Positions 1 to 14,101 of a stretch of DNA of 64,000 bases are shown here, piece by piece. Position numbers and translations under genes: made by a program. Each line of letters begins with the position of its first letter. The stretch's first letter is position 1. This DNA comes from Acidimicrobiales bacterium (GTDB taxonomy: Bacteria; Actinomycetota; Acidimicrobiia; Acidimicrobiales; Aldehydirespiratoraceae), in contig OZ241331.1 of NCBI GenBank assembly GCA_965200005.1, positions 543,770 to 607,769 of the forward strand. Direction: 5' to 3'. Below the pieces are notes generated by a model. The model worked only from the letters and a program-made list of their open reading frames with translations. It did not search any database and was not told the origin of the DNA.

Positions 1-667
1 CAAGGAAAGCAGCCTCACCGATGGAGTGCGTAACGAACACCCCGGTTACGCCCCGATCACGCTGCAGCCGGATCAGGTCGTTGTTCAAACGATTGCGGGT
101 GATCTCGTCGAGAGCGGCGAAGGGCTCGTCGAACAGCATCAACTGAGGGTCGGTGGCGAGGGTTCGGGCCAGGCTAACCCGCATCTTCATGCCGCCGCTG
201 AGTTGTGCCGGGTAGCTGTCCTCAAAGTCGGCTAGTCCGACGAGTTCAATGGCCGCTCGGGCCCGCGTCCGGCGCTGAGGTTTGCGGACACGATCAACCT
301 CGAGAAACAGTTCGACATTTCGTATGGCGGTGCGCCAGGGCAACAAATGTGCGTCCTGGAAGACGTACCCGGTCTCGGGACGACTCCCGCCAAAGTCCAC
401 GGCGCCTTCGGTTGGGGACAGTAGCCCGGCAACGATCTTGAGGAGCGTGGACTTGCCGCAGCCGGATGGGCCGACGACGGCGACCATCTCCCCAGCTTCG
501 ATCTTGAGATTGACCTTGCTCAGCGCGAGGAACCCGTTTCGGAAGCGACGGCTCACATTGTCGATGCCGACCGCAACGCCCGCTCGAGGCGTACCTCTTA
601 ACGTGGCGGTCTCACCGGGCGCGAAGTGCTCACTGGCCGCGGGCTCCGGGGCGCTCGGCTGGTTCAC
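1..667 (-). CDS. ABC transporter ATP-binding protein, NitT/TauT (nitrate/sulfonate/bicarbonate)-like; C-terminus runs off the window
   Basis: Own minus-strand translation; the frame is absent from the ORF track because it never closes inside the window. Walker A GPSGCGKST, signature LSGGMKMR, Walker B LMLFDEPF. Candidate GTG start at 667-665. Confidence 0.85.
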   Translation of the reverse strand, partial: MNQPSAPEPAASEHFAPGETATLRGTPRAGVAVGIDNVSRRFRNGFLALSKVNLKIEAGEMVAVVGPSGCGKSTLLKIVAGLLSPTEGAVDFGGSRPETGYVFQDAHLLPWRTAIRNVELFLEVDRVRKPQRRTRARAAIELVGLADFEDSYPAQLSGGMKMRVSLARTLATDPQLMLFDEPFAALDEITRNRLNNDLIRLQRDRGVTGVFVTHSIGEAAFL

Positions 668-1705
668 TACGCGCCCCAGCGGCCTCCCGCCCAGGTGACA
701 GGGCCTCACCGGACCGGCTTCGGCGGCCAGTTCGGCCAGGATGCGGCGATATTGCAAGGTCATGCGGTCGCTTCTGGTGTGAACTTCCGTGGTTATCTCG
801 GAAGGAAAGTCCGAAGGCATCCGCTCGAGCAGAGCCCGGTCTTCGCATTGCACGGTGCGATCCACAGCGATGATGCCTTTGGCCTTGTCGTCATCGGGAT
901 TGTCGTTGCGGGCGACGAACTGGCAGAACAACGTGCGGCGATCGTCCACAGGAGCGCACGTCTTGTAGAGCACGTGGCGCAGATCGTTCGGATACTCCAG
1001 CACACCCCGAAACACCATGGGCTGGACTAGTTCGGCGTGGGTGGTGCGGGTGATGAAATCATCGGTGATGCCGGTGTTGCGCTTTTGCTGCTCGGTAACG
1101 CGGGACTGGTAGGAGATGGTGAAGTTGAGGTTCCAGCCGTCGCGTTGCAAGGTGTAGTCCGACATTTGCGGCGCGTCGGCGTCACCGATACTGCCTCGAT
1201 GCACGAACGACAGGTGACTCACATCAAGGGCGTTATCCACGACTCGGGGAGCTGAGGCGTCCCAGACCTCCATCATCTCGTGGATCAGCACATAGTCGGG
1301 GTCGTTGAGTTCTGGCAGATCCGGGATCGGAGCCCGTGGCTCGTCTGCGATGCAGATCCACACCATCTCGTAGCGCTCGTCGGCATGTACCGCCCGCAGG
1401 CGGGCCCGCCGGGGGATCGGGGTGGACGGATCGTTTTGAGGTATGCGAACGCAGCGACCGGAGGCGTCGTATTGCCAGCCGTGATAGCCACACACCAGAC
1501 GGTCGCCGCTCAACCAACCCTGCGACAGACGAGCACCGCGGTGCGGGCACAAGTCGAAGGCACCGTGAACCTCACCGTCAGCGGTGCGCCACACCACGTA
1601 CTCTTCGCCGAAGAGCCGAGCAGCGTGAGGCTTGCTGGTCAGTTCCGAGGAGTACACGACCGGGTACCAGAACTCTCGCAGCGCCGGAATCTCACTAACG
1701 AGCAC
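668..1705 (-). CDS. Rieske [2Fe-2S] non-heme iron oxygenase (VanA/phthalate-family-like alpha subunit)
   Basis: Own minus-strand translation. Rieske motif CPHRGARLS...CGYHGWQY and mononuclear iron motif DNALDVSHLSFVH. GTG start at 1705 preceded by GGAGGG, with an upstream in-frame TGA at 1726-1724. No in-frame stop before the ABC ATPase region. Confidence 0.8.
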
Positions 1706-1840
1706 TGCTAAGCCCTCCCCGCCTCAGATCGCTTATTCCTGAGACAGTCAGATCTTTACAGGCTCCTCCAGCGCATTGCTAGTTGTCGTACTCGGGGACG
1801 ATGTGGACAGTGTTCGTGATACCTCGCGTTGAAGGCTCTC

Positions 1841-2962
1841 CTAACGGGCGACATTCGCAAATGGGGCCTCAGAGGGTTCGAGCCTTTGCTTCAACCCATT
1901 GCCTCGGTCGTAGGGCCATCTGCCATCATGTTGCAGGCGGCCAACCACAATGCCCGGCCCAACACCGATTCGCCGTGCGAACTCGCCAACGTCGTGAAGA
2001 GTCCGGAGCATTGCTAGTTCCGGTTCGTGCTGCCGCCCGATTAGGAGTTGGGAGGCGAATGCGTCAGCCTCTTGTTCAACTCCGCTATGTCGACCTACAT
2101 CGTTGATAAACGTCTCCTTCTTCGAGTGCTTCAGGATGTGTCCGATCTCGTGGAAGAAGGTGAACCACATGACATCGCTCCACTTGTAGCGCAAGCTCAA
2201 CTGCACGATTGCCTTTGTGGAAGTCAACCAACGAGCTGCACCATTGATTTGCCCCCCCTTGATTTCTGGCTCCGCCACCACTGCAACGCCAACAGAAGCA
2301 CACTTGCGTTTCATACGAGGAAACCATGTCTTCGGATCTCGTTCCCGAGTCATTGCGCGCAACTCAGGCAGTAACGCAAGCAGGCCGCTCCGGTCATAGG
2401 GCTGGCATTCAATCTTCTCAGCACTGATCTCGCCGATTCTCAGCCAGGCCGCAACCGCGCCAGGGTCACTGGTGAATGCCTTGGAAGTTCGATAAGCGGT
2501 CGGCTTGTGCCACACAGTCATCCACGCACTCCTGTCGGCGACACCGAAGAAGGCATAAATCTCACGGAGCTGTTCAACCGGCGCTGAGCGCTCTTTGATC
2601 CAGCCACGCGTGACCAACTCACCGACGGGCAGTTCCTTCAACCAGCCAACCTCCTTCTCCAACCGTTTCGCCTCAGCGGCACGTGACAGATACGCGTCAT
2701 AGGCGACTTGCAGGTTGTTCCACACCCGAGCTGGCGTGCCAGTTACGTGTTCTAGCCTTAGCGCCGTTCCCGGCGTGACCGCCGACGCTCCTTGGATGAT
2801 CTGATTGACATGTTTGGCGGAGAGCCCTGTACGCCTTGCGAGATCAACCTGAGTCATGCCGATCTCCTCCAAGCGTTCACAAAGCGTGTCGCCCGGCGGG
2901 AATACGATCTCCGGCTCGTACCGGTACGACTTCTTCGTTTCGGTCTTCAACCCAGCCGCCAC
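1841..2962 (-). CDS. HigA-like XRE-family HTH fused to an ImmA/IrrE (DUF955/M78) metallopeptidase domain
   Basis: N-terminal HTH MTQVDLARRTGLSAKHVNQIIQG. C-terminal zinc motif FFHEIGHILKH plus EQEADAFA. Lies directly downstream of the HigB-like gene. Confidence 0.8.
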   Translation of the reverse strand: MAAGLKTETKKSYRYEPEIVFPPGDTLCERLEEIGMTQVDLARRTGLSAKHVNQIIQGASAVTPGTALRLEHVTGTPARVWNNLQVAYDAYLSRAAEAKRLEKEVGWLKELPVGELVTRGWIKERSAPVEQLREIYAFFGVADRSAWMTVWHKPTAYRTSKAFTSDPGAVAAWLRIGEISAEKIECQPYDRSGLLALLPELRAMTRERDPKTWFPRMKRKCASVGVAVVAEPEIKGGQINGAARWLTSTKAIVQLSLRYKWSDVMWFTFFHEIGHILKHSKKETFINDVGRHSGVEQEADAFASQLLIGRQHEPELAMLRTLHDVGEFARRIGVGPGIVVGRLQHDGRWPYDRGNGLKQRLEPSEAPFANVAR

Positions 2963-2965
2963 CTT

Positions 2966-3298
2966 TCAGTGGTAATCCACGATCTCAATCACTGTGACGC
3001 TCTCCACCCGACTCCAGTCAAGCCCTCCGTCGGAGTTAACCGGCGCTGGACTCTCCGTGGGACGAAATACCAAACGGTAAGGGTGCTCAACATCTACTGC
3101 GAGAGTCCCCTTGCGATTTTGCATTAGTTCATGGCATCGGCCGGGAAGGTTCCTCATGTCCTTAAGCGACGGAGCAGCCTGCATCTGCTGGAGTCTGAGA
3201 GAGACCTTCTTCGCCCCTGTCACTCCAAAGATGCGCCGGAGCTTTGACGCATCAGAGAGCTGCCGTTGAAGTTTCTTCGTCGCAAACAAGACTTCCAC
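2966..3298 (-). CDS. HigB-like toxin (plasmid maintenance system killer protein, RelE superfamily)
   Basis: 110 aa. Pattern ...LRLQQMQAAPSLKDMRNLPGRCHELMQNRKGTLAVDV..PYRLVF....VIEIVDYH is typical of the HigB/killer family. A 3-nt gap separates it from the downstream HTH gene. Confidence 0.7.
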   Translation of the reverse strand: MEVLFATKKLQRQLSDASKLRRIFGVTGAKKVSLRLQQMQAAPSLKDMRNLPGRCHELMQNRKGTLAVDVEHPYRLVFRPTESPAPVNSDGGLDWSRVESVTVIEIVDYH

Positions 3299-3468
3299 GA
3301 CTTCTCAACCCATTGGCGGCTCCCCGACGAGGACATGTTAGTCCAGCACGTGAAGCCCCTCCCAGCAAGCCATCAGTTAAGGAAGTTCTTATATACTGGA
3401 TACGTATATGTTAATCATGTAGACTAATCCATCCCTAAGGTAGGGGCTATGTGCGAGAGGAGAGCGGG
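3299..3468. promoter_or_regulatory. AT-rich divergent intergenic region with short palindromes (candidate operator/promoters)
   Basis: Visibly AT-rich compared with its flanks. Palindrome ATACGTAT at 3400-3407; inverted arms ATATAC (3391-3396) and GTATAT (3404-3409). Sits between divergent genes, one of which encodes an HTH. Confidence 0.35.
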
Positions 3469-4935
3469 ATGAGTGCCCTCACCCAACTAGAACAGATTCG
3501 ACAATCCACCACCGCCAAACCCCACGCACTTAGCGTTGCAAGAACTCGTCTGACCCAGACCCTGAGGGCTGCGGCAACCTTTCCCGGTGCTCTCCGAACG
3601 TTTCGTTCCGGCTCGCTTGCCACAGGGTTTGTCAACGACCCAGTACAGGATGGCGATGGTGGCTTAGTAATAGACCGCCGAAAGTGCCCGAACCTCGGAC
3701 CCGACGGTCAAGGTGACTTACCTCAAGAAGTCGTGGCGACACTCCGCGGTCACCTTCGCCCGATCCTTACGCTCCGCTACCCAAGGCTTCGACTGGATAC
3801 GAGTAAGCGTGGACTCCTAATTCGATTCAACGAACCACTTGCTTCCGGAGAGGACCCGACAGTCGACCTTGTGGTTGCGCTGAACCGAGTGCGGGACAAC
3901 GCACTGTGGATCCCGAATCTCGACGAGAACCGGTGGGATCCGAGCGACCCCGAGAAGCACAAGGTACTCTTTACCTCTGGTTGGGAGACGCTGCGGCGAA
4001 CCCGGCGGCACGTTGTGCGGGTTGCGAAGGCTCAAATCAAGCAGTTTTCCGCGCCGACTGTGTGCTCGTTCCACATAGCCACCTTGGCATGGGAGAGCAC
4101 CGTGACGGCCGAGCCTCTCGACAGAGCCCTCTACCGCTTCTACGACTACGCAGCAACGGAACTCTCCCATCGTTTCACGGAGGACCCAGCCGGTGTCAGC
4201 GAACCAATACGAGTCTCAAACGGGGATCGCGCTGCCAGGCACTTCCGACGCATAGCCGACGCGATCGGCCGTGCAATTGATGCTGGCGAAGACGACAGGA
4301 GGGTGAGCGAGGCCCTCGGGGCCTTTGGCGTCTTCTGGAAGTTGATGCCTCAACTATCTGGTTCCAGCCCTAGCGCCATTCACCAAGCCTTCACCGCCGG
4401 AACGCCGTTAGGCGTCACAGCTTCGGGGCGACTCACGACCGAAGCGGAGAACGGGAATCCTGTTGTCAAGCCCACACGCGCCTACGGAGGTCTGAGAGTG
4501 CGGCAAGCAACCGGGCCCTGGTACGGAAGATTTAGTGACCGTCTGACGTTCGAAAGAGGCGCAAAGTCGCGTTACCCGTCACTAGTCTCGCTAACTCGTC
4601 GACGAGGCCGAGGCTGGGAGTATCGGCTTGTGGTCAATCCACCAGGCTCGGACTCCCGGCGATTGACCATCGAATTTCCACTGCAGCACCCTCGGCTACC
4701 GATCGTTCGCGCTGACGGCCCGGCATCCTCTCCGCACAGATATGAAGATGGAAGCCTTTGCATGTGGTACCCGTCAGACCCACGTGACCGTCGTTGGGTC
4801 TTCAGCGACGGTCTTGTCGCGCTGATTGGATGCGCCCAGGCACACCTCTCAAAGGAGGCCCTATGGCGAGAGTGGTGCGAATGGCCAGGTAGCGAAGTTC
4901 CACACACCACAAGCGGCGCACACTCGGCCGTGTAA
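3469..4935 (+). CDS. Pol-beta-fold nucleotidyltransferase (CD-NTase/SMODS-like) with a C-terminal E2/UBC-like domain
   Basis: The ORF track opens at GTG 3451; ATG 3469 has AGGAG 7 nt upstream. NTase motifs: GS at 3610-3615, DGD at 3649-3657, TVDLVVAL with Asp at 3865-3867, then a helical SFHIATLAWE region. The C-terminus RRLTIEFPLQHPRLPIVRADGP..SPHRYEDGSLCMWYP..RW resembles the UBC core, with Cys at 4759-4761. Confidence 0.6.
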   Translation: MSALTQLEQIRQSTTAKPHALSVARTRLTQTLRAAATFPGALRTFRSGSLATGFVNDPVQDGDGGLVIDRRKCPNLGPDGQGDLPQEVVATLRGHLRPILTLRYPRLRLDTSKRGLLIRFNEPLASGEDPTVDLVVALNRVRDNALWIPNLDENRWDPSDPEKHKVLFTSGWETLRRTRRHVVRVAKAQIKQFSAPTVCSFHIATLAWESTVTAEPLDRALYRFYDYAATELSHRFTEDPAGVSEPIRVSNGDRAARHFRRIADAIGRAIDAGEDDRRVSEALGAFGVFWKLMPQLSGSSPSAIHQAFTAGTPLGVTASGRLTTEAENGNPVVKPTRAYGGLRVRQATGPWYGRFSDRLTFERGAKSRYPSLVSLTRRRGRGWEYRLVVNPPGSDSRRLTIEFPLQHPRLPIVRADGPASSPHRYEDGSLCMWYPSDPRDRRWVFSDGLVALIGCAQAHLSKEALWREWCEWPGSEVPHTTSGAHSAV

Positions 4936-5222
4936 TGCACCCATTAGTTGCTCAAATTGCCGAGCAGTCCTCCAATCCCGACTCGGCACTGATCATTGCG
5001 ACGATCGCGATGTTCGTTTCGTTGATTGGAATTTGGAACACAAACCGCGTAGCCCGCCGGGACCGTCAATTGAAACTCTTCGCTGAAGCCTACGCAGCAG
5101 TCCGCTCATATCGCGAGTTCCCGTTCGCGATACGCCGCGACGTCAGACACCGAGGCCGACCTCACCACCAGGCTCTCAAGTTGCCAACGATGGACAGCAC
5201 ACCGAGGCCGACCTCATATTGA
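4935..5222 (+). CDS. Small single-pass membrane protein, function unknown (possibly truncated or frameshifted)
   Basis: The ATG overlaps the upstream stop (TAATG, 4933-4937). Hydrophobic helix ALIIATIAMFVSLIGIW. The C-terminal 25 aa look non-protein-like. Confidence 0.4.
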   Translation: MHPLVAQIAEQSSNPDSALIIATIAMFVSLIGIWNTNRVARRDRQLKLFAEAYAAVRSYREFPFAIRRDVRHRGRPHHQALKLPTMDSTPRPTSY

Positions 5223-5428
5223 TTGAGGAGACGCGCAGGGTCGCTGGTGCCGAGATTTCAGCTGCTTGGGATGCGCCACCTAGAGCGCTTGGCGAGCCAC
5301 CCCACGTGCGTAACGTCGATCTCCTCGAGTTGGCGTTGCCAGATTCAGCATTCTTGTTGGCCGTGCGTGATCATCTCAGCTTGTTTCCCACCAGACTCCG
5401 CAGAGCCTTTCGCCACTACAGAAGTTGA
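5219..5428 (+). CDS. Short ORF in another frame, possibly the displaced C-terminal part of the preceding gene
   Basis: TTG-initiated 69-aa ORF. Its composition looks protein-like (IEETRRVAGAEISAAWD...LLELALPDSAFLLAVRDHL). No independent ribosome-binding site seen. Confidence 0.2.
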   Translation: MIEETRRVAGAEISAAWDAPPRALGEPPHVRNVDLLELALPDSAFLLAVRDHLSLFPTRLRRAFRHYRS

Positions 5429-5934
5429 CCGCGGTACCACTCTTCGCTACACCGTCTGCTCGATGAGAAGCCATCGACGATGCAGCACCGGCCTCAACAG
5501 CGTTAGTACATCGGGCAGGTCGGTTTGTTGGATACGAGGTCGCCTGTTATCTCAGCGAGATGGCGGTTTCGGAGGCTGCCGTTTACGGCCTGTAGTATTG
5601 CTGCGGGCGACCGCCGAGGATCTCTTGGCATACCCCGACTTAGTTACCCGGTTAACGTTGAGACGAGGGTTCAGACTCTGCCTTCGAGGGTGTCTGGACC
5701 GACTAAACGGAAGCACGCGCACGGCTCCACCTATTTGTTTGCTTGGGGTGGTCGAGGCAATAGGTGCTCAGCTTCATCAAGGTGCTGCTTGCAGGTGCGG
5801 TGTCGTGAGGGCGCACTTCGTGTGAAACTACCGCGTTCATCCTTGAGTGCATGGTTGTTTGTGTGCTCATTTCTCTATTCAAGAGTGTCGCAACTCAGGC
5901 ACGTGAGCGGATTTCGACGGGGTAGCGTCGTTTT

Positions 5935-7053
5935 GTGGTCGCTAGCAGTGTGAGGCGTCGGCTCCGTGGGGGCTATGAGATTTCCGATGACGCCCAGCGT
6001 TTTGATGCTGAAGCCATGCATGACTTCCTTGAGGCCGAGGGCTATTGGGCGAAGGGGCGCAGTCGCGAGGCAACTCTGATAGGGGCTGCCCATAGTGTTG
6101 TGCTGGGCGTGTATGCACCTGATGGTGCGATGGTGGGCGGTGCTCGCCTCGTCACTGATTGGGCGACGTTTGGCTGGCTGACCGATGTGTACGTGGTTGA
6201 GGCACACCGCGGCCGTGGGCTCGGAAAGGCTCTCGTCGCGGCAGCGCGTGAGCACCCGTCGGTCGCAACAGTCAAGCGTCTGCTGCTGATCACTTCTGAT
6301 GCACACGAGCTGTACCACCAGTTCGGATTCGCCCCTGTGACTCATCCAGACAGGTGGTTGGAGTTGCGAGGCTCCCAAGGCGTGGGCACGGAGGCTTCAG
6401 GGGCAGATCCTGCAGGAGCCTCTGCTGCCGCTACCGCTGACGCTGGTCAACACGATGACAGCAGCACGATGGTCGCTCGATTTGAGTCGGCTGGAAGCGT
6501 CACAACCTTGGCACCGGATCCCCGGACAGCCTCGGCCTCGCTGATCGCCGATCACCTATTGCCGATCATTGAGCGCGAAGGGCCGATCACGGTCGACCGA
6601 GCGTTCAGGCTCTATATCAAGGCGTCTGGTTCATCGAAGGTCACCAAGAAGGCCCGTGTGCCGTTGGAACAAGCGTTGTGGCGCTTGGATCTGAGGGGTC
6701 AACTGGATCGTGACGAGATTGCTCGTGGTGACGACAAGGACAAGCAGGCGGTGATTCGGTTGTCGGGCACCCCGGCGGTGATCGTGCGTGAGCTTGGGGA
6801 TCGCTCGCTTTATGACGTACCGCTCAACGAGGTCGTCGAGTTGATGCGGCGAGTCCGGCGCGGGCTGCAAGGCCCTGGTGGCGGTCAACCTTTACCTCCA
6901 CACGTGGCGGCGGCGGTAAGCCGTTCGGGCAGTGGAGGTTTAGGGTCTGAACAACTCAAGCGCGCCGTCCTCGCTACCTACGGCCTCACTCGCATGACCC
7001 AAGCCGCCAACCGCTATCTCTCCGAAGCTCTGCAACTCCTCGAAGACGACTAG
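5935..7053 (+). CDS. GNAT N-acetyltransferase fused to a DUF3320-like C-terminal domain
   Basis: N-terminal YEISDD...FL..EGYWAKGR...DVYVVEAHRGRGLGKALV...LYHQFGF matches the GNAT pattern. C-terminal LLPIIEREGPITVDRAFRLYIKASG resembles the DUF3320 tail of SF1 helicase-like proteins. Confidence 0.65.
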   Translation: MVASSVRRRLRGGYEISDDAQRFDAEAMHDFLEAEGYWAKGRSREATLIGAAHSVVLGVYAPDGAMVGGARLVTDWATFGWLTDVYVVEAHRGRGLGKALVAAAREHPSVATVKRLLLITSDAHELYHQFGFAPVTHPDRWLELRGSQGVGTEASGADPAGASAAATADAGQHDDSSTMVARFESAGSVTTLAPDPRTASASLIADHLLPIIEREGPITVDRAFRLYIKASGSSKVTKKARVPLEQALWRLDLRGQLDRDEIARGDDKDKQAVIRLSGTPAVIVRELGDRSLYDVPLNEVVELMRRVRRGLQGPGGGQPLPPHVAAAVSRSGSGGLGSEQLKRAVLATYGLTRMTQAANRYLSEALQLLEDD

Positions 7054-7179
7054 TCCCGCGCTTGCTCTGTCGGCGACACCTGAGGTCGCCCGTGATGAAG
7101 GCGGAATAGCGGTTGCCCCAACTCAACTGCTTGCTGACATCGCTCGAGCATTACGGCATGTGTCGGCTACCTGCGTCCG

Positions 7180-8436
7180 TCAATTAGCTGTCCAGAGGGA
7201 ATCGATTGGTTGGAGCCGCAACCGATCGCCAGCTGGCAGGTTTTGTTGGCCGGTGTGAAGTAGCAGCCCCTGTTTGAAGGTTCCGGGTGCGACGGTGTCA
7301 AGACGATCCCTGAACCAGCGCAGGCTTCGTAGCTGCTTGAGCGTAGGAGTGCTCGTGGCTTTGATCTCAATTGCGATTACGGCACCGCCAGGCTCCTCGA
7401 TGACCAGATCGACTTCATAGCCCTGCCGATCTCGATAGTGATAGAGGCGCTGGTGTCCCCCGGCTGAAGTGATCTGCCGGTGGATCTCGTTGACGGTGAA
7501 CGTCTCAATGAGCGAGCCCGCAGCGACAGAGGTGGGGGCTGTTAGCGATTTGGCGCTGAGTCCTAGTAGTCCTGCAGCCAGTCCGGTGTCGCAGATGTGG
7601 TTCTTGGGTCTACGGATTGTGCGAGAACTTAGGCTTCTCGACCAGACGGGCAGTCTTAGCACCAGGAACACGGTCTCCATCCACTCCATGTAGGACTGGA
7701 TGGTGTGGCTGGACACTTCAAACGTTGATGCGAGCGATGAGAGATTGAGTTCGGTGCCGGTGCGCGCGCTCAAGAGTCGCAACAAGCGGGGAAGTACGTC
7801 GTGGCGGCGCAAGCTAGACAGCGCGATGATGTCTCGCTGTATCACTGTCTCTGCGTAGCTCTCGAACCATCCCGTTCGCATCCGGGGGGCAAACCTGACC
7901 GGCTCGGGATAGCCACCGCGGCAGACGAGTTCCATGTATTCGTGTCTCTGTAAGTGCGTCGATTGTGGCGCGATTGCACTTGGCTGCAACCAAGGTGGCG
8001 GCGTTGTTGCGGGTCGTCCAGCTAGTTCAGCTTGCGACAACGGTGATAGGCGCAAGATTCGGGCACGCCCTGCAAGCGATTCGCTTAGCCGGGGAACCGT
8101 GAGGAAGTTCGTAGAGCCGGTCAGCAGGAACTTTCCGGGTTTGGGATCTTCGTCAACAATCTGCTTGACAGCGCGCACCTGGCTGTCGCCACCGAGTTGT
8201 ATTTCGTCGATAACGAGAGGGTGGCTTTGGTATTTGAGAAAGCTGGCTGGATCGGTCTGAGCTAACTGCCGGATTGCCGGGTCTTCAAACGTTGTGTAAC
8301 TGCCGCCCAATTCACGTGCGACAAGCCGCGCAAGGGTGGACTTTCCAACTTGTCGAGCGCCGTGCAAAACGACCACCCGAAACGCGCCGAGAGCGTCCGC
8401 TATCGGGCGGTGGAGGTGCCGGCTCACCAACTCCAT
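7180..8436 (-). CDS. AAA-family ATPase with DUF4143 (AAA_14/DUF4143 type)
   Basis: Walker A HGARQVGKSTL and Walker B LVIDEIQ, with the C-terminal region typical of DUF4143 proteins. Start set at internal ATG 8436 (MELVSRH) rather than 8541, which lies inside the tandem repeat. Confidence 0.8.
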   Translation of the reverse strand: MELVSRHLHRPIADALGAFRVVVLHGARQVGKSTLARLVARELGGSYTTFEDPAIRQLAQTDPASFLKYQSHPLVIDEIQLGGDSQVRAVKQIVDEDPKPGKFLLTGSTNFLTVPRLSESLAGRARILRLSPLSQAELAGRPATTPPPWLQPSAIAPQSTHLQRHEYMELVCRGGYPEPVRFAPRMRTGWFESYAETVIQRDIIALSSLRRHDVLPRLLRLLSARTGTELNLSSLASTFEVSSHTIQSYMEWMETVFLVLRLPVWSRSLSSRTIRRPKNHICDTGLAAGLLGLSAKSLTAPTSVAAGSLIETFTVNEIHRQITSAGGHQRLYHYRDRQGYEVDLVIEEPGGAVIAIEIKATSTPTLKQLRSLRWFRDRLDTVAPGTFKQGLLLHTGQQNLPAGDRLRLQPIDSLWTAN

Positions 8437-8457
8437 GACCTCGATGTTAGACGGAGT

Positions 8458-8560
8458 TGCAAATCCGCATGGGGTCGAACTACAAATCCGCATGGGGTCG
8501 AACTGCAAATCCGCATGGGGTCGAACTGCAAATCCGCACATCGACGAACTGCAAATCCGC
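8458..8560. repeat. Tandem direct repeat, 23-bp period, about 4.4 copies
   Basis: Copies start at 8461, 8484, 8507 and 8530, with a partial copy at 8553. Unit AAATCCGCATGGGGTCGAACTGC. Copies 1-3 are near-identical; copy 4 diverges centrally (CACATCGACG). Confidence 0.95.
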
Positions 8561-8610
8561 TTAGCTAGGTATTGCAGACTCCGTCTGCACTACTTGCTGG
8601 GCTTCTCAGA

Positions 8611-10878
8611 TCAAGGCTGGAGCTTGTTTCGTGTCGCGGTCAGCAGTGCCCACACTCGTTGCGGGGTAAGGGGCAGCTCCGTTGGCCAGACCCCGACTGC
8701 ATGCCCGACGGCTGAAGCAACAGCAGCGGGAACTGGGTTCAGTGTTCCTTCGCCTCCACCTTTGGCGCCGTACGGGCCAACCCCGTCGCGGCGCTCAGCG
8801 ACCACAGAAGTGATACGGCGAGGCTTGTCACGCAGTCGGGGCACCCTGTATTCGACCATGTTGGGATTGGTTAACTGCTCGCCGTCATAGATCAACTCTT
8901 CCCAGAGGGCGATGCCCAATCCTTGGGTCGCAGCACCAATGTCTTGACCCTTGAGCAACGCCGGGCTGATGGCATGACCGACATCACCAACGGTGACGAG
9001 ATATTCGATCGTTACCTCGCCGGTGGATGCGTTGACTGCAACCTCGACGCCGACCACGCCGATCTCCCAGAACGGTGGCAGCTCCCGGGTGGTGCCGTCA
9101 CGGCGCATGATGCCCACACCAACCAACTCTCCGGCATCAGCACCGAACCAATCACAGATCACTTGCGCTGGCGTGCGGGGTTGACCGCACACGTTGATCT
9201 GACCGTCTCGGATCGTCACCTGCGCCAGTTCGACCCCGGCACGCTCGGCTGCGGCGGCCCGCAACTTCTCCCAAAGATCCGCACAAGCTGCCTGCACCGA
9301 GAGCCCAACGATTGTTGTGGTGCGGCTTGCACCGGTAGTCCATTCAAAGGGCGTGAAGCGGGTGTCGCTCTGGCCAACCGCAACCGCCTCGGGAGGCATG
9401 CACATCTCTCGTGCGGCTATGGCCGCCAGGGTCGAGCGGCTGCCCTGGCCCATCTCAGTGCTGCTCACTAGCAGAGTGAGCGACCCATCTGAGTGCAGCC
9501 TCACTTGTGCGGTGGAGATCGGCGAAGCTCCGGCATCGCTGGCGGTCAGCGCCACGGCATGTCCTCGCAACACGCCAGGCTCTGGGGCTCGGGGCGGTGC
9601 CTCACTCAAGGCTTTGGCTACGGCTTGCAGATCTGCAGCTAGGTCTGCATCAAGTGGACGCTTGCCTTCGATGAGTGATTCGCCGGGGGCGACAAGGTTG
9701 CGGCGGCGCAACTCAACCGGGTCGATCCCGAGTCGGGCCGCCGCCATGTTCATGTTCAACTCTCCGGCGAGCGCTGCTTGAGGTGCGCCGAAGCCCCGGT
9801 ATGAGGATGCTGGCGAGGTGTTGGTGTAGACGGCCACGCCACGCACAGCCAGGTTGGGCACCCGGTAGGGGCCGAAGCTGCGGTTGATGCTCTTGGTGAG
9901 AACTAGCGGGCTGTTGTCGGCGTACGCACCGGTGTCGAAGCAGATGTCGATGTCACGAGCGACGATTCGGGCGTTGCTGTCAAATCCTGTTCGCACGCTG
10001 ACGATCGCACTGTCGGCTCGGGTGGTGTACATGGCGGCTTCGACGTCAGTGGTGACTTTCACTGGACGCCCCGTCGCCCAGGAGGCCACGGCGGCAAGAG
10101 GCTCAAGCTTGGTGTAGGACTTCGAGCCGTAGCCCCCGCCGATGTAGGGCACCTCGACTCGCACTTTGGCAAGCGGCAGCGAGAAGATCCGGGCAAGTTC
10201 TTTGCGCACCATGAGCGGATGCTGTGCCGTCGAGACAACGTGAAGACCGTCTGGCCGCCAGTCAGCTACCGAGTTGTAGGTCTCCATGGCGTAGCCGTAA
10301 ACGAGCGGGAATCTGGCTGTCGTCTCCACAACAGTTGCTGCGCTTGCGAGGGCTGCAGTCGCGTCCCCACGACGCAGTTCACCTCGATGGGCCACATTGT
10401 CTGCAGATGCTGAGGGTGCGACGTCGAGGAAGCCTTTGCCTGACTTAACGTAGAATTGATCGTGAATCAAAACGTCTGACTCAAGCGCTGCAGTTGCATC
10501 TGTGAGAGTTGGAAGTTCGTCGTAGTCGATCCAGATCAGAGCGGCTGCGTCTTCGGCCTGATGTGGTGTCTCGGCGACGACCACCGCTACAGGCTCGCCG
10601 AAGTAACGCACTTTGTCGATTGCGAGGATCGGATGGTCGGGGACGATGTGACCGAACCGGCGACGCAGTCCGCCCAAATCGTCGCTTGTAAGTATCGCGA
10701 TCACTCCTGGTGCGTTGCTGGCTTCGTCAGTGTCGATACCGGTGATGAGTGCGTGTGCTCGTTCGGAGCGCACGACGGCACTGTGAGCCATGTTTGGCAT
10801 CGTCGTGTCAATTGCGAACCGGGCGCGACCTGTGACCTTGTCCCATGCGTCCAGCCGGGGGCGCTGTGCCTTAGTCAC
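8611..10878 (-). CDS. Xanthine dehydrogenase/aldehyde oxidase family molybdopterin-binding large subunit (CoxL-like)
   Basis: 755 aa. N-terminal DKVTGRARFAIDT motif, consistent length, and an operon with 2Fe-2S and FAD subunits. Confidence 0.9.
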   Translation of the reverse strand: MTKAQRPRLDAWDKVTGRARFAIDTTMPNMAHSAVVRSERAHALITGIDTDEASNAPGVIAILTSDDLGGLRRRFGHIVPDHPILAIDKVRYFGEPVAVVVAETPHQAEDAAALIWIDYDELPTLTDATAALESDVLIHDQFYVKSGKGFLDVAPSASADNVAHRGELRRGDATAALASAATVVETTARFPLVYGYAMETYNSVADWRPDGLHVVSTAQHPLMVRKELARIFSLPLAKVRVEVPYIGGGYGSKSYTKLEPLAAVASWATGRPVKVTTDVEAAMYTTRADSAIVSVRTGFDSNARIVARDIDICFDTGAYADNSPLVLTKSINRSFGPYRVPNLAVRGVAVYTNTSPASSYRGFGAPQAALAGELNMNMAAARLGIDPVELRRRNLVAPGESLIEGKRPLDADLAADLQAVAKALSEAPPRAPEPGVLRGHAVALTASDAGASPISTAQVRLHSDGSLTLLVSSTEMGQGSRSTLAAIAAREMCMPPEAVAVGQSDTRFTPFEWTTGASRTTTIVGLSVQAACADLWEKLRAAAAERAGVELAQVTIRDGQINVCGQPRTPAQVICDWFGADAGELVGVGIMRRDGTTRELPPFWEIGVVGVEVAVNASTGEVTIEYLVTVGDVGHAISPALLKGQDIGAATQGLGIALWEELIYDGEQLTNPNMVEYRVPRLRDKPRRITSVVAERRDGVGPYGAKGGGEGTLNPVPAAVASAVGHAVGVWPTELPLTPQRVWALLTATRNKLQP

Positions 10879-10914
10879 GAAACTCTCGCATCCAACCTTC
10901 GTGCGGTGCTCGCT

Positions 10915-11403
10915 TCATGTTGCGGACACGTTGCGTGCCACGAGCATGACGGCCTGCTCAATTGGTTCATAACCCGTGCAACGACACAAGTTGCCGTCCA
11001 TCCACTCGGTCACCTGTTCGAGTTCTGGGCTGGGGTTTGCTTGCAGCAGTGCAACGGCCATCATGATGAAACCCGGGGTGCAATAGCCGCATTGCAAGGC
11101 GTTAGTGGCCATAAAGGCGTCTTGCACTGGATGCAGTTCGCGGCTTTTGGCAAGTCCCTCAATGGTTAGGACATCAGTGCCATCGAGATCACAGGCAAGC
11201 GTCGCACAAGAGCTAATGGGCTTGCCGTCGACGAGAACGGTGCAGGCACCGCAGACCTGCATTTCACAACTGACTTTGGTGCCGGTCAGGTTCAGGTGAC
11301 TACGAATGAATTCGGCAACTGTGAGCCGAATAGGCACGAGTGTTTCAATGTGGTGACCGTTGACCCTGAGTCGCAGCCACATCGAACGCTGAGGCTCTGT
11401 CAT
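10915..11403 (-). CDS. (2Fe-2S)-binding small subunit of a molybdenum hydroxylase (CoxS-like)
   Basis: Motifs CEMQVCGACTVLVDG, QCGYCTPGF and CRCTGY. Start moved to ATG 11403 (MTEPQRS). Confidence 0.9.
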   Translation of the reverse strand: MTEPQRSMWLRLRVNGHHIETLVPIRLTVAEFIRSHLNLTGTKVSCEMQVCGACTVLVDGKPISSCATLACDLDGTDVLTIEGLAKSRELHPVQDAFMATNALQCGYCTPGFIMMAVALLQANPSPELEQVTEWMDGNLCRCTGYEPIEQAVMLVARNVSAT

Positions 11404-11514
11404 AGCGTCATCATGTTGAAGAGGGTGCAAGAACGTCCGAAAATCAGCTTTTGGTGTGTGCTAGTGTGACTTATCGGTGTATTCGATTGATTTTGTTGTC
11501 TCACCTCGACGTTG

Positions 11515-12303
11515 TCACAGTTCGATTTGCAGCTTGTTACTGAGATAGTTGCGGAGCACCCAGCGCTTGTAATCAGGAGAGCCGCAGATGTCGTCACTCA
11601 GTTCGAGTTGTTCGACAAATGCGCTCAAGCTCGCCGTATCTGACGCTTCAAAGATCTGGCGGACGGGACGCTCGGTTGCCGCTCCAACTGTGACTTCCCT
11701 GGTTGTTGTCGTCACCCGCAGGGCAACTCCCAGGGTTGGACGCTCGTAACTTTGCAGTTTCCAGTAGGAGAACCCATGCGGTTCGAATCCGACCTGAATC
11801 TCGGTCAGTATTTCATCTTCGGCGAGAGTCGTCTCGAAGGCTCCCAGAATGAAGTCATCCACGGTGACAGTTCGAGCACCGCTTGACGAGGCAAGGTTCA
11901 CTGTCGCATTCAAAGCCACGAGCACACAGCCCAGATCAGAACGCGGCTCAGCGAAACAGAGGTTCCCGCCGATAGTCCCCGAGGCTCGAACACGAGCGTT
12001 GCCTACCCGAGAAGCCACCTTTGCCAGGGTCGGCACATGTTCCCGGACACGTTCATCATCAGCGATCCGCTGATGCGTTACGGCCGCTCCAATCGACAGA
12101 GTTCTTGCTGTGTAGTCGATATCAATTTGGTTGAGCGAGTCAACGCGTTTGAGATCAACGATGGCGGCCGGAGCACGTAACCCCAGCGCCATCGCAGGCA
12201 CTAACTCAGTACCACCCGCGTAGGGAACATGGTCGAAGTCGACAGCCGAGAAGACCACGTCGAGATCATCACTACGGATCAGTCCGACCTCGGGCAACAC
12301 CAC
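11515..12303 (-). CDS. FAD-binding subunit of a molybdenum hydroxylase (CoxM-like)
   Basis: 262 aa. AGGTELV and GTIGGNLC motifs of the FAD_binding_5/CO dehydrogenase flavoprotein family. Confidence 0.85.
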   Translation of the reverse strand: MVLPEVGLIRSDDLDVVFSAVDFDHVPYAGGTELVPAMALGLRAPAAIVDLKRVDSLNQIDIDYTARTLSIGAAVTHQRIADDERVREHVPTLAKVASRVGNARVRASGTIGGNLCFAEPRSDLGCVLVALNATVNLASSSGARTVTVDDFILGAFETTLAEDEILTEIQVGFEPHGFSYWKLQSYERPTLGVALRVTTTTREVTVGAATERPVRQIFEASDTASLSAFVEQLELSDDICGSPDYKRWVLRNYLSNKLQIEL

Positions 12304-12371
12304 AGCAACAGTGTCTCAGCGCCCAACCCAAACCTCACAATCGCGACGGTGATCACGATCTTGGCTCGCGT

Positions 12372-13364
12372 CTAGTAGTAGTCAAGCTCGCGGATCAGTT
12401 CGACTGTCTCCTCGAAGTCTGGGAGTTTCGAGTTGGTAGGGACGAGACCCTCCAGTCTGTGGACATAAGCGTCGCGGAGTGCCTCGTACGCCAGAGTGCC
12501 AGGTTCAAACGCAGGAGAGTGACCGTAACCGTTCTCTGGACGCGGAGCTTTGTGTCCAAACCCAACAGTCATTGCGCCGACGAGATCAGGTACTCGCCGA
12601 CGAGTCTCCTTTGCGTGGTGACTTCTGGCAATACAGGCAAGATCCAAGACATCACGAATCCGAGCCCTAAGCGCCCTCAAGTTGCCGCCCTCGGCTCGCC
12701 GGTGAAGCGCATCAAGCTTGTTCACTGCAGTGAAAGGCACGACAACGACGGGCAACTCAAAGCCTCCAATCTCGGGGTATTCGGACTCTAAGTCAGGCAA
12801 AGCGCGGCCGATGATTGAGTGGATCACTCGCCGATCCGTAAGTGTCTCCGCGGGGTCGGGCGAGTGAATGGCTGAGTCCACGTTAAGAGTGGACCCATCC
12901 GGTGCCGTGAGGGCAGTGATCTGAATAGAACCTGCTCCGCCACTCCTCCGGGTTGCGCCGATCTCTTCAGACGCCCAGCTTGTGACCAGTCGACGAACGA
13001 CTCTCAGCGCGTTCTTAGAGACTGTGTTGTGGGCACGAAACAAGTTGCTATCTAAGTCTTCGCTGAACCGCTCCACGACCTGCCATGCAGCAGAGAGCGA
13101 GGTTCCTCCAGCGAACGCCCATCGGGCAACCTTTGGCATCTCCCGTCGTGTCAGGCCCTTGGCGACGGCTTTGCGATCAGGTGTTTGCCCCAGCCAGCCG
13201 TCCGAGGGCAAGTGCTTAGAGACTCCGTATAAACAACACGAGATCCAGTGGTCATGCATGATCTGATCAGGTGCATAGCCCGAGACTCGGACTGCTTCGT
13301 CAAGCACATCCCTAAGGTCGTGCGACTCCCGGAGAGGTGAGGAGTCTGGTCGGGATACTCGCAT
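12372..13364 (-). CDS. AbiEii/AbiGii-family nucleotidyltransferase toxin (type IV TA)
   Basis: FAGGTSLSAAWQVVERFSEDLDSNLF matches the AbiEii GG[TS]...R.SEDLD signature. The start overlaps the upstream gene stop by 1 nt (TGATG). Confidence 0.8.
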   Translation of the reverse strand: MRVSRPDSSPLRESHDLRDVLDEAVRVSGYAPDQIMHDHWISCCLYGVSKHLPSDGWLGQTPDRKAVAKGLTRREMPKVARWAFAGGTSLSAAWQVVERFSEDLDSNLFRAHNTVSKNALRVVRRLVTSWASEEIGATRRSGGAGSIQITALTAPDGSTLNVDSAIHSPDPAETLTDRRVIHSIIGRALPDLESEYPEIGGFELPVVVVPFTAVNKLDALHRRAEGGNLRALRARIRDVLDLACIARSHHAKETRRRVPDLVGAMTVGFGHKAPRPENGYGHSPAFEPGTLAYEALRDAYVHRLEGLVPTNSKLPDFEETVELIRELDYY

Positions 13365-14101
13365 CAGAAGCCAGCCGCGCGTAACGCGCCTGCCATCTCC
13401 CGTAGCCGGACGGCAAATGGCGGGTCATCAGGATCTCTCGGCCAACCCATGCTCTCGAGTCGCCCTTCAAAGGCCGTGGGTTGTTCAAATGGGATGGCGG
13501 CTTCGAACGCATCCGCTCGCAGCGTAAGGGTGCGAGGTAGACGGAACCACGCCTCATGCGAGTAAACCGACCACAAGACGTACTCCCAAGGATAGTCGTC
13601 GTTCGGTTCCCACCACCGCACTGCCTCCAGAAGACTCACTTCTCCCCATGTCAAACCTCGGCGGTGCCGATTCGCCGCTGAGAACTCCCACTCAATATTC
13701 ATGATTGAGATCTTCGGAGGTTTTGGCTTAAGGGTTGCGACCTGGCGAATGCACGGCGATTGGGTAGTCCAACCGAACTTGTTGAGGGCGATCCAGCCCG
13801 CTAACCCACCGCCATCACCAGCGGCCCAACACAAAGCTCGCAACCACTGCTTCGTGGGTGACGACTCGATGATGCCACTAGGTTTAGGGACAACTCGCTT
13901 CCAGTAGAGCCCGCGCGAGATGTGCTCAAGCATCGGCTCGTAGCCCTTGGAGAGTCGGTACAGGACCTGGTTGCGGAGGGCAGGCTCTCCGGGAGCGTCT
14001 TTCGACCAGAACAGGGTGTCGGGCGGCAACTCGTACACCCACTGTCGTGTTTCTCTAATAGCCGTCATAGCACGGACTATAGCTATTTTCGACTGAACCA
14101 C
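13364..14101 (-). CDS. AbiEi-like antitoxin/transcriptional regulator
   Basis: LYRLSKGYEPMLEHISRGLYWK (wHTH-like) and GWIALNKFGWTTQSP patterns. Positioned immediately upstream of AbiEii. Confidence 0.6.
   Translation of the reverse strand: MVQSKIAIVRAMTAIRETRQWVYELPPDTLFWSKDAPGEPALRNQVLYRLSKGYEPMLEHISRGLYWKRVVPKPSGIIESSPTKQWLRALCWAAGDGGGLAGWIALNKFGWTTQSPCIRQVATLKPKPPKISIMNIEWEFSAANRHRRGLTWGEVSLLEAVRWWEPNDDYPWEYVLWSVYSHEAWFRLPRTLTLRADAFEAAIPFEQPTAFEGRLESMGWPRDPDDPPFAVRLREMAGALRAAGF

Follow-up and report, generated by a model that had tools for sequence, protein, structure and literature searches.

A probable mobile type II (short) CBASS operon with a fused cyclase-E2 gene, divergent from a HigB/HigA-M78 pair, in an Acidimicrobiales bacterium

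We analyzed a stretch of 64,000 nucleotides from the genome of an Acidimicrobiales bacterium (assembly GCA_965200005.1, contig OZ241331.1, positions 543,770 to 607,769 of the forward strand), hereafter called the window, with respect to a gene cassette between its positions 1841 and 5428. At a probability of roughly 0.8, this cassette is best explained as a mobile unit with five functions, in which a type II (short) operon of the cyclic oligonucleotide-based antiphage signaling system (CBASS) faces a divergently oriented pair consisting of a HigB-like gene and a gene that joins a HigA-type helix-turn-helix (HTH) domain to an M78 peptidase. The core of the locus is an E2-only CBASS operon of a catalogued class, encoding a cyclase, an E2 enzyme and a single-transmembrane (1TM) effector. 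In the window the cyclase and E2 frames are fused and the effector frame is broken, and judging from the sequence this copy of the CBASS operon is probably non-functional and decaying. An earlier note on the same DNA had taken the locus for an undescribed CBASS-like or ubiquitin-like immune system, a view that was largely refuted when the family was compared across genomes.

The cassette is organized as two divergent transcription units that flank a spacer of 170 bp, and contains the following features:

1841..2962, minus strand: HigA-type XRE HTH domain (amino acids ~20-105) and M78 (ImmA/IrrE) zinc peptidase, from Pfam, PADLOC, NCBIfam and PDB profile matches
2966..3298, minus strand: HigB-like protein (RelE superfamily 'killer protein') with C-terminus ...IVDYH, first gene of the leftward operon, from Pfam and PDB profile matches
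3299..3468, no strand: divergent intergenic region with a candidate operator, from composition and an inverted repeat
3469..4488, plus strand: cGAS/DncV-like nucleotidyltransferase (CD-NTase) domain ending in T-R-A-Y-G340, a putative processing/conjugation site, from PADLOC, Foldseek and conserved residues
4489..4935, plus strand: short disordered linker G341-T348, then an E2 domain of ubiquitin-conjugating (UBC) fold with H423, C431, H459 and H479, from PADLOC, an AlphaFold2 (AF2) model and conservation
4935..5428, plus strand: CBASS 1TM effector pseudogene, from a partial PADLOC match, tblastn and DNA alignment

A cyclase-E2 fusion protein of the type II (short) class

The rightward unit starts with an open reading frame (ORF) of 488 amino acids (aa), which overlaps at TAATG with an ORF of 95 aa (4935-5222). 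The start of the 488-aa protein was set at ATG 3469, where a GGAGAG Shine-Dalgarno (SD) sequence lies upstream and the N-terminus agrees with those of homologues; the mechanical ORF start is the GTG at 3451, upstream of this ATG. The leftward unit consists of a 110-aa ORF (2966-3298) and, after a gap of 3 nt, a 373-aa ORF (1841-2962).

Residues 12-346 of the 488-aa protein matched the PADLOC model for CBASS cyclases (PDLC00777, 9.8e-97), and the C-terminal ~145 aa matched the PADLOC model for CBASS E2 (PDLC00867, 1.7e-36, aa 352-487). Homologues of the fusion protein carry the Pfam family PF26395 (E2-CBASS). Sequence searches of the PDB returned marginal matches for the fusion protein and zero for a profile of 64 E2 sequences, so predicted structures and Foldseek were needed. 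The AF2 model of the fusion, made with 20 homologues, had a predicted local distance difference test score (pLDDT) of 86.7 and a predicted TM-score (pTM) of 0.86; residues 346-356, where pLDDT fell below 50, form a disordered linker. Its top Foldseek matches in the PDB were CdnD, CdnG, CdnB, CdnC and cGAS. The cyclase active site (G48-S49, D61xD63 and D133) is invariant, leaving the motif GS...[DE]x[DE]...[DE] intact. When the E2 part was modeled alone (pLDDT 84), the top matches were exclusively UBC-fold enzymes, and the best TM-score, 0.62, was to 8hsb_B from the cryo-electron microscopy complex of Serratia marcescens CdnG and E2. All 84 E2 sequences of the family have H423 and C431 (100% conservation), and H459 and H479 are kept in at least 95%. 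The identification of the cyclase-E2 protein thus rests on PADLOC hidden Markov models (HMMs), homologue annotation and structure, and it bears out the earlier note, which had recognized from the letters a pol-beta nucleotidyltransferase (NTase) of the cGAS/DncV type with an E2/UBC domain fused to it in cis.

The note had also reported that E1 and JAB genes are absent, and when the ORFs from 1 to 8541 were searched against Pfam, PADLOC and NCBIfam, neither was matched. The PADLOC E1-E2 models gave weak matches in the E2 region alone (2.4e-5 and 8.6e-3). A full type II CBASS, with Cap2 (E1-E2) and Cap3 (JAB), was ruled out on these grounds, the E1-E2 matches being confined to E2 and a JAB match lacking. 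Since E1 and JAB are absent, the locus falls under the definition of type II (short) CBASS, a class that reportedly figures in the classification of Millman et al. (2020); this answers the question, raised in the note, whether the locus matches a defence subtype that is already catalogued. Moreover, the C-terminal end of a further PADLOC cyclase model of 542 positions (PDLC00816) aligned to the E2 region of the window protein at 7.7e-4, a profile alignment which suggests that fused cyclase-E2 forms are already in the PADLOC catalogue.

Systems with a CD-NTase and an E2, and with E1 and JAB absent, have been described as 'type II (short)' or 'E2-CBASS' (10.1101/2022.03.31.486616), and 593-616 of them are known (10.1101/2022.03.31.486616; 10.1101/2022.05.25.493364). 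Like these, the window locus has a CD-NTase with a conserved C-terminal Gly, an E2 with a Cys and a nearby His, and a downstream effector, and it has neither E1 nor JAB. Unlike in the Serratia E2-CBASS, cyclase and E2 lie on one polypeptide, the effector is a pseudogenised 1TM protein rather than 2TM-SAVED, and an exonuclease gene is absent. The His-Cys spacing also differs, with 8 residues in the window, as in the canonical HPN...C, and 14 in the Serratia E2.

The CBASS trio recurs across genomes

In a homologue search that covered 5.8 billion proteins, hundreds of cyclase homologues were recovered, most of them 340-347 aa long and a minority ~490-aa fusions. Exact look-ups of the 488-aa protein (P0001) and of P0007 gave no record. 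A scan of one genome per species yielded 80 loci (individual loci are given L numbers below). Cyclase, E2 and 1TM effector stand in the same order in nearly all 80 of these, in Acidimicrobiia, Dehalococcoidia, Streptomyces, Micromonospora, mycobacteria, Solirubrobacterales and others, and homologues labelled 'hypothetical protein' were found on actinobacterial plasmids too. The whole five-function cassette was encountered again with differing flanking genes. Fused cyclase-E2 genes are scattered over six or more distinct branches of the cyclase tree, each a separate origin of the fusion, and make up ~14% of the related loci examined. Two checks proposed in the earlier note are addressed by these data. 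The profile searches supported the NTase, UBC, HTH and M78 assignments (PADLOC, Pfam and NCBIfam), and the co-occurrence across genomes of fusion, TM gene and HTH-ImmA gene was found in part: the trio is nearly everywhere among the 80 loci, but the fusion is present in a minority and the HigB/HTH-M78 pair in one clade.

In six Dehalococcoidia loci (L041, L043, L044, L045, L048 and L050) the divergent gene, at ~4800-5820 on the minus strand, codes for another cyclase, of the SMODS/DncV-like kind (in L041 the Pfam SMODS match is 3.7e-24), placing two cyclase genes head-to-head beside the E2-CBASS trio. The cassette relative in L003 lies near an SNF2 helicase and an MmeI-type methyltransferase/restriction enzyme (8211-13473), and L007 and L008 also have defence neighbours (1-2954), in L007 a DNA methylase, an HATPase and a Type ISP fragment. 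Such neighbours are consistent with a cassette that moves between defence islands.

The effector of the window is a decayed gene

The 95-aa ORF matched the PADLOC CBASS 1TM effector at 1.5e-11, over profile positions 21-76 of 174 only. It contains the N-terminal TM part in frame; by tblastn, the C-terminal third was located out of frame at 5204-5392, where it falls inside another ORF (5219-5428). A DNA alignment to the nearest relatives (L016 and L010) revealed deletions of 5, 4 and 34 nt in the window effector. The effectors of relatives are intact, with 168-174 aa, and that of L003 matched at 5.6e-25 over profile positions 17-168 of 174. By descent the locus is still a type II (short) CBASS; as judged from these alignments, its 95-aa ORF is a pseudogenised remnant of a 1TM effector, not an intact small gene. 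The earlier note had described a translationally coupled small TM ORF in the place of an effector; its TAATG coupling and its effector kinship stood, its integrity did not. With the frame broken by three deletions, the window copy probably cannot execute defence. A sequencing artefact was rejected as the origin of the break, the lesions being deletions of this size and not homopolymer errors.

An 18-nt perfect direct repeat, ACACCGAGGCCGACCTCA, occurs at 5147-5164 and at 5199-5216 inside the decayed gene. The 34-nt deletion site falls within the second copy, and the 5-nt deletion borders on the first, an arrangement that suggests slippage or recombination at the repeat as the cause of the lesions.

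The divergent HigB/HigA-M78 pair

The 373-aa protein matched Pfam HTH_3 (1.8e-8) and Peptidase_M78 (7.1e-8), passed the NCBIfam model antidote_HigA TIGR02607 (58.8 bits versus a cutoff of 47.7; 3.5e-16) and gave PDB profile matches to HigA/VapI at 1e-9 to 6e-5. Among defence models its best match was PADLOC PD-Lambda-2_B (3.1e-32, aa 23-346 versus positions 60-376 of 402); PADLOC capP matched at 4.3e-8 over a partial profile, and capH gave no PADLOC match at or below 0.1. The zinc motif HEIGH is found at aa 271-275 with E296 as third ligand, and HExxH...E is invariant in nine orthologues. We regard the 373-aa protein as a candidate repressor, antitoxin or sensor.

For the 110-aa protein, Pfam HigB-like_toxin matched at 1.4e-4, below the gathering score, and no PADLOC model matched at or below 0.1. 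A profile of nine orthologues found GraT (6f8s_B, 6.7e-4) and the Proteus HigB (4mct_B, 8e-3) in the PDB, and the C-terminal ...DYH of the protein is what we take to be the catalytic C-terminus of HigB. The gene order, higB then higA, is that of a HigBA type II toxin-antitoxin (TA) system, with an extra peptidase domain of ~270 aa on HigA. The XRE HTH-ImmA/IrrE gene on the opposite strand and the HigB-like toxin gene before it, both recognized in the earlier note, were in this way confirmed by profile matches, and the former occupies the CapH/CapP position.

The occurrence of this pair beside the CBASS trio was traced to a single monophyletic clade of Acidimicrobiia, in which loci with and without the fusion are found and the genomic contexts vary. 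Every member of this clade has a HigB-like gene next to its HTH-M78 gene. At the same head-to-head position, L023 and also L032, L037 and L091 carry a canonical CapH-like HTH gene and CapP (sister-locus PADLOC capP matches of 6.8e-15 and 8.7e-31), and L001 and L029 carry HTH-M78 fusions of another, 'RmrA'-like lineage. The latter two were missed by a first jackhmmer pass and were found through upstream ORFs with Pfam and PADLOC. In L001, whose cyclase is fused, the HTH-M78 fusion is accompanied by a 213-aa protein with a faint precomputed match to DUF3368, for which a Pfam scan gave none.

A metagenome scan with the HTH-M78 alignment produced 80 loci, in 63 of which a HigB-like ORF lies immediately upstream of the HTH-M78 gene. 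Twenty large divergent neighbours were examined: four encode other SMODS cyclases, three KAP NTPases, two AAA ATPases and one a TIR protein, and the remainder are unknowns or seemingly unrelated genes. By analogy, these neighbours mirror the behaviour of CapH/CapP described by Lau et al. In the metagenomic loci L095 and L152 an AAA ATPase gene stands opposite the pair, and ~1 kb further on the same strand there is an NTase-like match; either locus may hold a different CBASS type controlled by a regulator of this kind.

CapH/CapP, CapW and CapK/CapS serve as regulators of defence operons elsewhere. Like CapH/CapP, the window pair combines an XRE HTH with an M78 Zn-peptidase, is encoded upstream on the opposite strand and shares a common promoter region with the CBASS operon. 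Unlike in CapH/CapP, the HTH is HigA-type, PD-Lambda-2_B is by far the stronger match (3e-32; capP 4e-8, partial), the peptidase is without the Cys-switch residue, and an extra HigB-like gene comes first. With PD-lambda-2 the pair shares a HigA-Xre/peptidase fusion that is homologous over its full length and, putatively, the HigB-like gene before it; unlike PD-lambda-2, it stands head-to-head with a CBASS operon. The pairing of a toxin gene with an IrrE/M78-peptidase antitoxin is also seen in VapBC52 and in loci with a vapC-like gene and a CapH-CapP fusion, but compared with VapBC52 the window toxin is HigB (RelE fold) and not PIN, and the Cys switch is absent. The VapB52 antitoxin of M. tuberculosis, an IrrE-peptidase protein, cleaves itself on single-stranded DNA (ssDNA) (PMC13273310). 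HTH and peptidase are likewise joined in 15 CapH-CapP fusions published by Lau et al. (2022), who also note a vapC-like gene and CapH-CapP fusion adjoining DISARM. In their Table S1 the label 'Type II short' occurs 141 times among systems associated with CapH/CapP. Fused CapH-CapP proteins appear there for Micromonospora, Frankia and Mycobacterium, and among actinobacterial entries they precede type II short CBASS. In function the 373-aa protein probably resembles CapH/CapP, but by descent it is a member of the PD-lambda-2_B lineage. No description of a HigB/HigA-M78 module as a divergent CBASS partner was found in the searchable literature.

The spacer between the two units (3299-3468) has 50.6% GC, and 40% in its core (3360-3450), versus 60% for the window. 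It includes a perfect inverted repeat, ATATAC-N7-GTATAT, at 3391-3409, and most relatives have a palindrome TACCT-N1-3-AGGTA at a similar place, ~65 nt upstream of the cyclase ATG. We propose the palindrome at 3391-3409 as a candidate operator. A scan of 3299-3468 found no strict sigma-70 consensus.

The fusion junction and probable processing by E2

At unfused loci the E2 start codon (GTG, TTG or ATG) overlaps the cyclase stop codon. At fused loci, 6-15 residues separate an invariant Y-G-G from the conserved E2 motif GPWYG. Inside the window fusion an in-frame GTG at 4498 survives, 7 nt after a GGAGG (4486-4490); this is the ancestral E2 start, and free E2 could still be made from there. Programmed frameshifting between cyclase and E2 was rejected, the unfused loci having ordinary overlapping starts in either alternative frame.

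The sequence [Y/F/W]-G at the cyclase C-terminus is kept in nearly all of ~80 loci, the exceptions being fused L034, where the G is replaced by S, and L089, where the position is ambiguous. Unfused cyclases invariably extend past it: all 70 have a variable tail of 1-7 aa, and none ends at the G. The Serratia E2 is known to remove the cyclase residues that come after the conserved Gly, even a fused MBP, in a reaction that depends on the catalytic Cys and a nearby His; it then makes thioester and isopeptide bonds, and the resulting poly-cyclase chains (poly-cGASylation) activate synthesis (10.1101/2022.05.25.493364). This published trimming offers a simple explanation for both the tails of the family and the recurrent fusions, since fusing the frames would cost little. 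By analogy with the Serratia enzyme, the fusion is probably a self-processed precursor. Natural cyclase-E2 fusions were not found described in the searchable literature, where the one thing a phrase search turned up was the covalent complex described by Yan et al.

A proposed mechanism and its alternatives

We hypothesize that the mobile type II (short) CBASS operon and the facing pair work together as follows. The HigA-type HTH of the 373-aa protein would bind the spacer palindrome and repress both operons, while the same protein would either neutralise its HigB-like partner or be neutralised by it. A phage or DNA-damage cue would activate the M78 peptidase, and the repressor would be cut in cis or in trans, much as CapP cuts CapH and VapB52 cuts itself. 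By analogy, and in keeping with its genomic position, this cut would derepress the CBASS operon. The E2 protease-transferase, with Cys431 and His423, would then cut the cyclase-E2 chain past ...TRAY-G340 and pass the C-terminal Gly of the cyclase to Cys and on to Lys; as in the Serratia system, cyclase-cyclase conjugation would switch on the synthesis of cyclic nucleotides. From what is known of the class, the nucleotide would activate the single-TM effector of ~170 aa, with cell death as the outcome. A change of 1 nt that joined the cyclase and E2 frames would have been tolerated in the window lineage because processing removes everything past the Gly.

Several points weigh against this account. 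On the 494-aa form of the cyclase-E2 protein, Pfam found no families. The M78 domain has no Cys between HEIGH and E296, and so lacks the Cys switch of CapP and VapB52; its trigger may therefore differ from theirs. Some divergent neighbours of the pair are not obvious defence genes, namely a Dyp peroxidase, a transposase and Ig-like proteins. Which of the HigB-like and 373-aa proteins is toxin and which antitoxin is uncertain, because in PD-lambda-2 toxicity came from the Xre-peptidase protein, with the HigB-like protein as its neutraliser (PMC9519451). The closest relatives of the window cyclase (65-74% identity) are unfused and the window effector is dead, and the fusion in this genome could be a neutral lesion. 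Finally, we infer the processing of the natural fusion, the operator binding and the activating signal.

One alternative is that the fusion in the window is functionally meaningless, a lesion caused by a 1-nt frameshift, or else an assembly error, in a dying operon. The nearest relatives (L016, L010 and P0008-P0011) are unfused, the junction differs in length from that of L010 by one nucleotide, and the ancestral E2 SD and GTG start are still inside the fusion; the effector is a pseudogene, and the ORF on the left flank likewise reads through two domains that are normally separate. But the E2 part has zero stops or frameshifts and keeps every conserved residue, and fusions arose independently in at least five other lineages with intact effectors, in many independent assemblies (the P0003 cluster has 19 members), while the effector lesions, at 4-34 nt, are not homopolymer errors. 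We consider a meaningless fusion unlikely, if still a serious contender. More improbable in our judgement is a HigB/HigA-M78 pair that forms a self-contained TA or abortive-infection module of the PD-lambda-2 or VapBC52 kind, without wiring to CBASS. PD-lambda-2 does defend alone, as a three-gene system (Vassallo et al. 2022, PMC9519451), most metagenomic loci have the pair without the CBASS family of the window, and some of its neighbours are non-defence genes. The HigB-like protein, moreover, keeps the C-terminal D-Y-H and an invariant His56, both presumably catalytic, which suggests a working RNase. Against independence, the pair stands head-to-head with CBASS across a spacer of ~150-250 bp in each of the clade's 15 non-redundant loci, although their flanks differ, canonical CapH and CapP take the same position in sister loci, and at least 10 of the 20 divergent partners examined are defence operons, an enrichment. 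Furthermore the third PD-lambda-2 gene (P4-antitoxin-like), which that system requires (PMC9519451), is absent: nothing lies between 1841 and the Rieske ORF that begins at 1723, 118 bp downstream.

The view of the earlier note, in which the tethered E2 and the lack of E1 and JAB amount to a new regulatory logic in an undescribed system, appears highly improbable. In its favour, no text describing natural cyclase-E2 fusions was found in the searchable literature, plasmid homologues are annotated 'hypothetical protein', and Pfam misses the cyclase-E2 protein. However, lacking E1 and JAB is what defines the known type II short class, every part matches CBASS HMMs, the three core proteins all matching PADLOC CBASS models, and most relatives keep this gene order with cyclase and E2 unfused. 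The different wiring that the note saw in the tether is likewise not needed, given that the known protease activity of E2 already explains how a fusion would resolve and that CapH-CapP fusions with type II short CBASS have been published. Because both the fusion and the TA-derived partner can be explained by known mechanisms, the mobile CBASS cassette is a variant of a catalogued system, not a new system. What goes beyond the descriptions found in the searchable literature is incremental: a recurrent natural fusion of cyclase and E2, and a TA-derived module as a portable defence partner.

Implications

We tentatively suggest, while rating it somewhat below even odds, that cyclase-E2 fusions are self-excising polyprotein precursors and that HigB/HigA-M78 is a portable sensor with dual output. 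If this is true, the fusion precursors are a bacterial counterpart of ubiquitin, which is made as a fusion precursor, and the 1-7 aa tail on every unfused cyclase would mean that processing of the C-terminus by E2 is obligatory family-wide. A single proteolytic event would free the HigB mRNase and derepress whichever operon the pair faces, be it CBASS, KAP NTPase or TIR, and HigB/HigA-M78 would represent a second, TA-derived family of CapH/CapP-like defence regulators. The family would also provide a natural test of the 'super-enzyme' model, in which E2 acts as protease, E2 and E3, and a cyclase-E2 chain that cuts itself would be a convenient substrate on which to dissect the E2 reaction. The comparison suggests that the HigB/HigA-peptidase pairs known from TA surveys and from PD-lambda-2 may be general, swappable defence regulators. 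For annotation, a large CBASS clade of actinobacteria and Chloroflexota now stands as 'hypothetical protein' and is missed by Pfam. The practical message for the window is that it holds a decayed CBASS copy.

Flanking genes

To the right of the cassette lie an ORF with a GNAT domain and a PADLOC PDC-S01 gene. The latter (7180-8541, minus strand) encodes a 453-aa ATPase with AAA_14 and DUF4143 that matched PDC-S01 at 5.2e-140, and its presence beside the CBASS cassette suggests a small defence island. The 372-aa ORF at 5935-7053 (plus strand) has an N-terminal GNAT acetyltransferase domain, and its C-terminal part matched weakly to DUF3320 and to the C-termini of large helicase-type anti-phage proteins (PDC-S37 and ProA). 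This is an odd combination of domains, and may be a gene remnant fused to GNAT. A scan for tRNA genes found none, and the profiled ORFs, which extend to 8541, included no integrase.

On the left, an uninterrupted frame of more than 574 aa (2-1723, minus strand) ends 118 bp from the cassette. By eye, its first part is like a Rieske-type oxygenase (CPHRG...CGYHGW) and is followed by an ABC-transporter ATPase (GPSGCGKST). The frame joins what are normally two separate genes, and is either a real fusion or another case of a lost stop codon.

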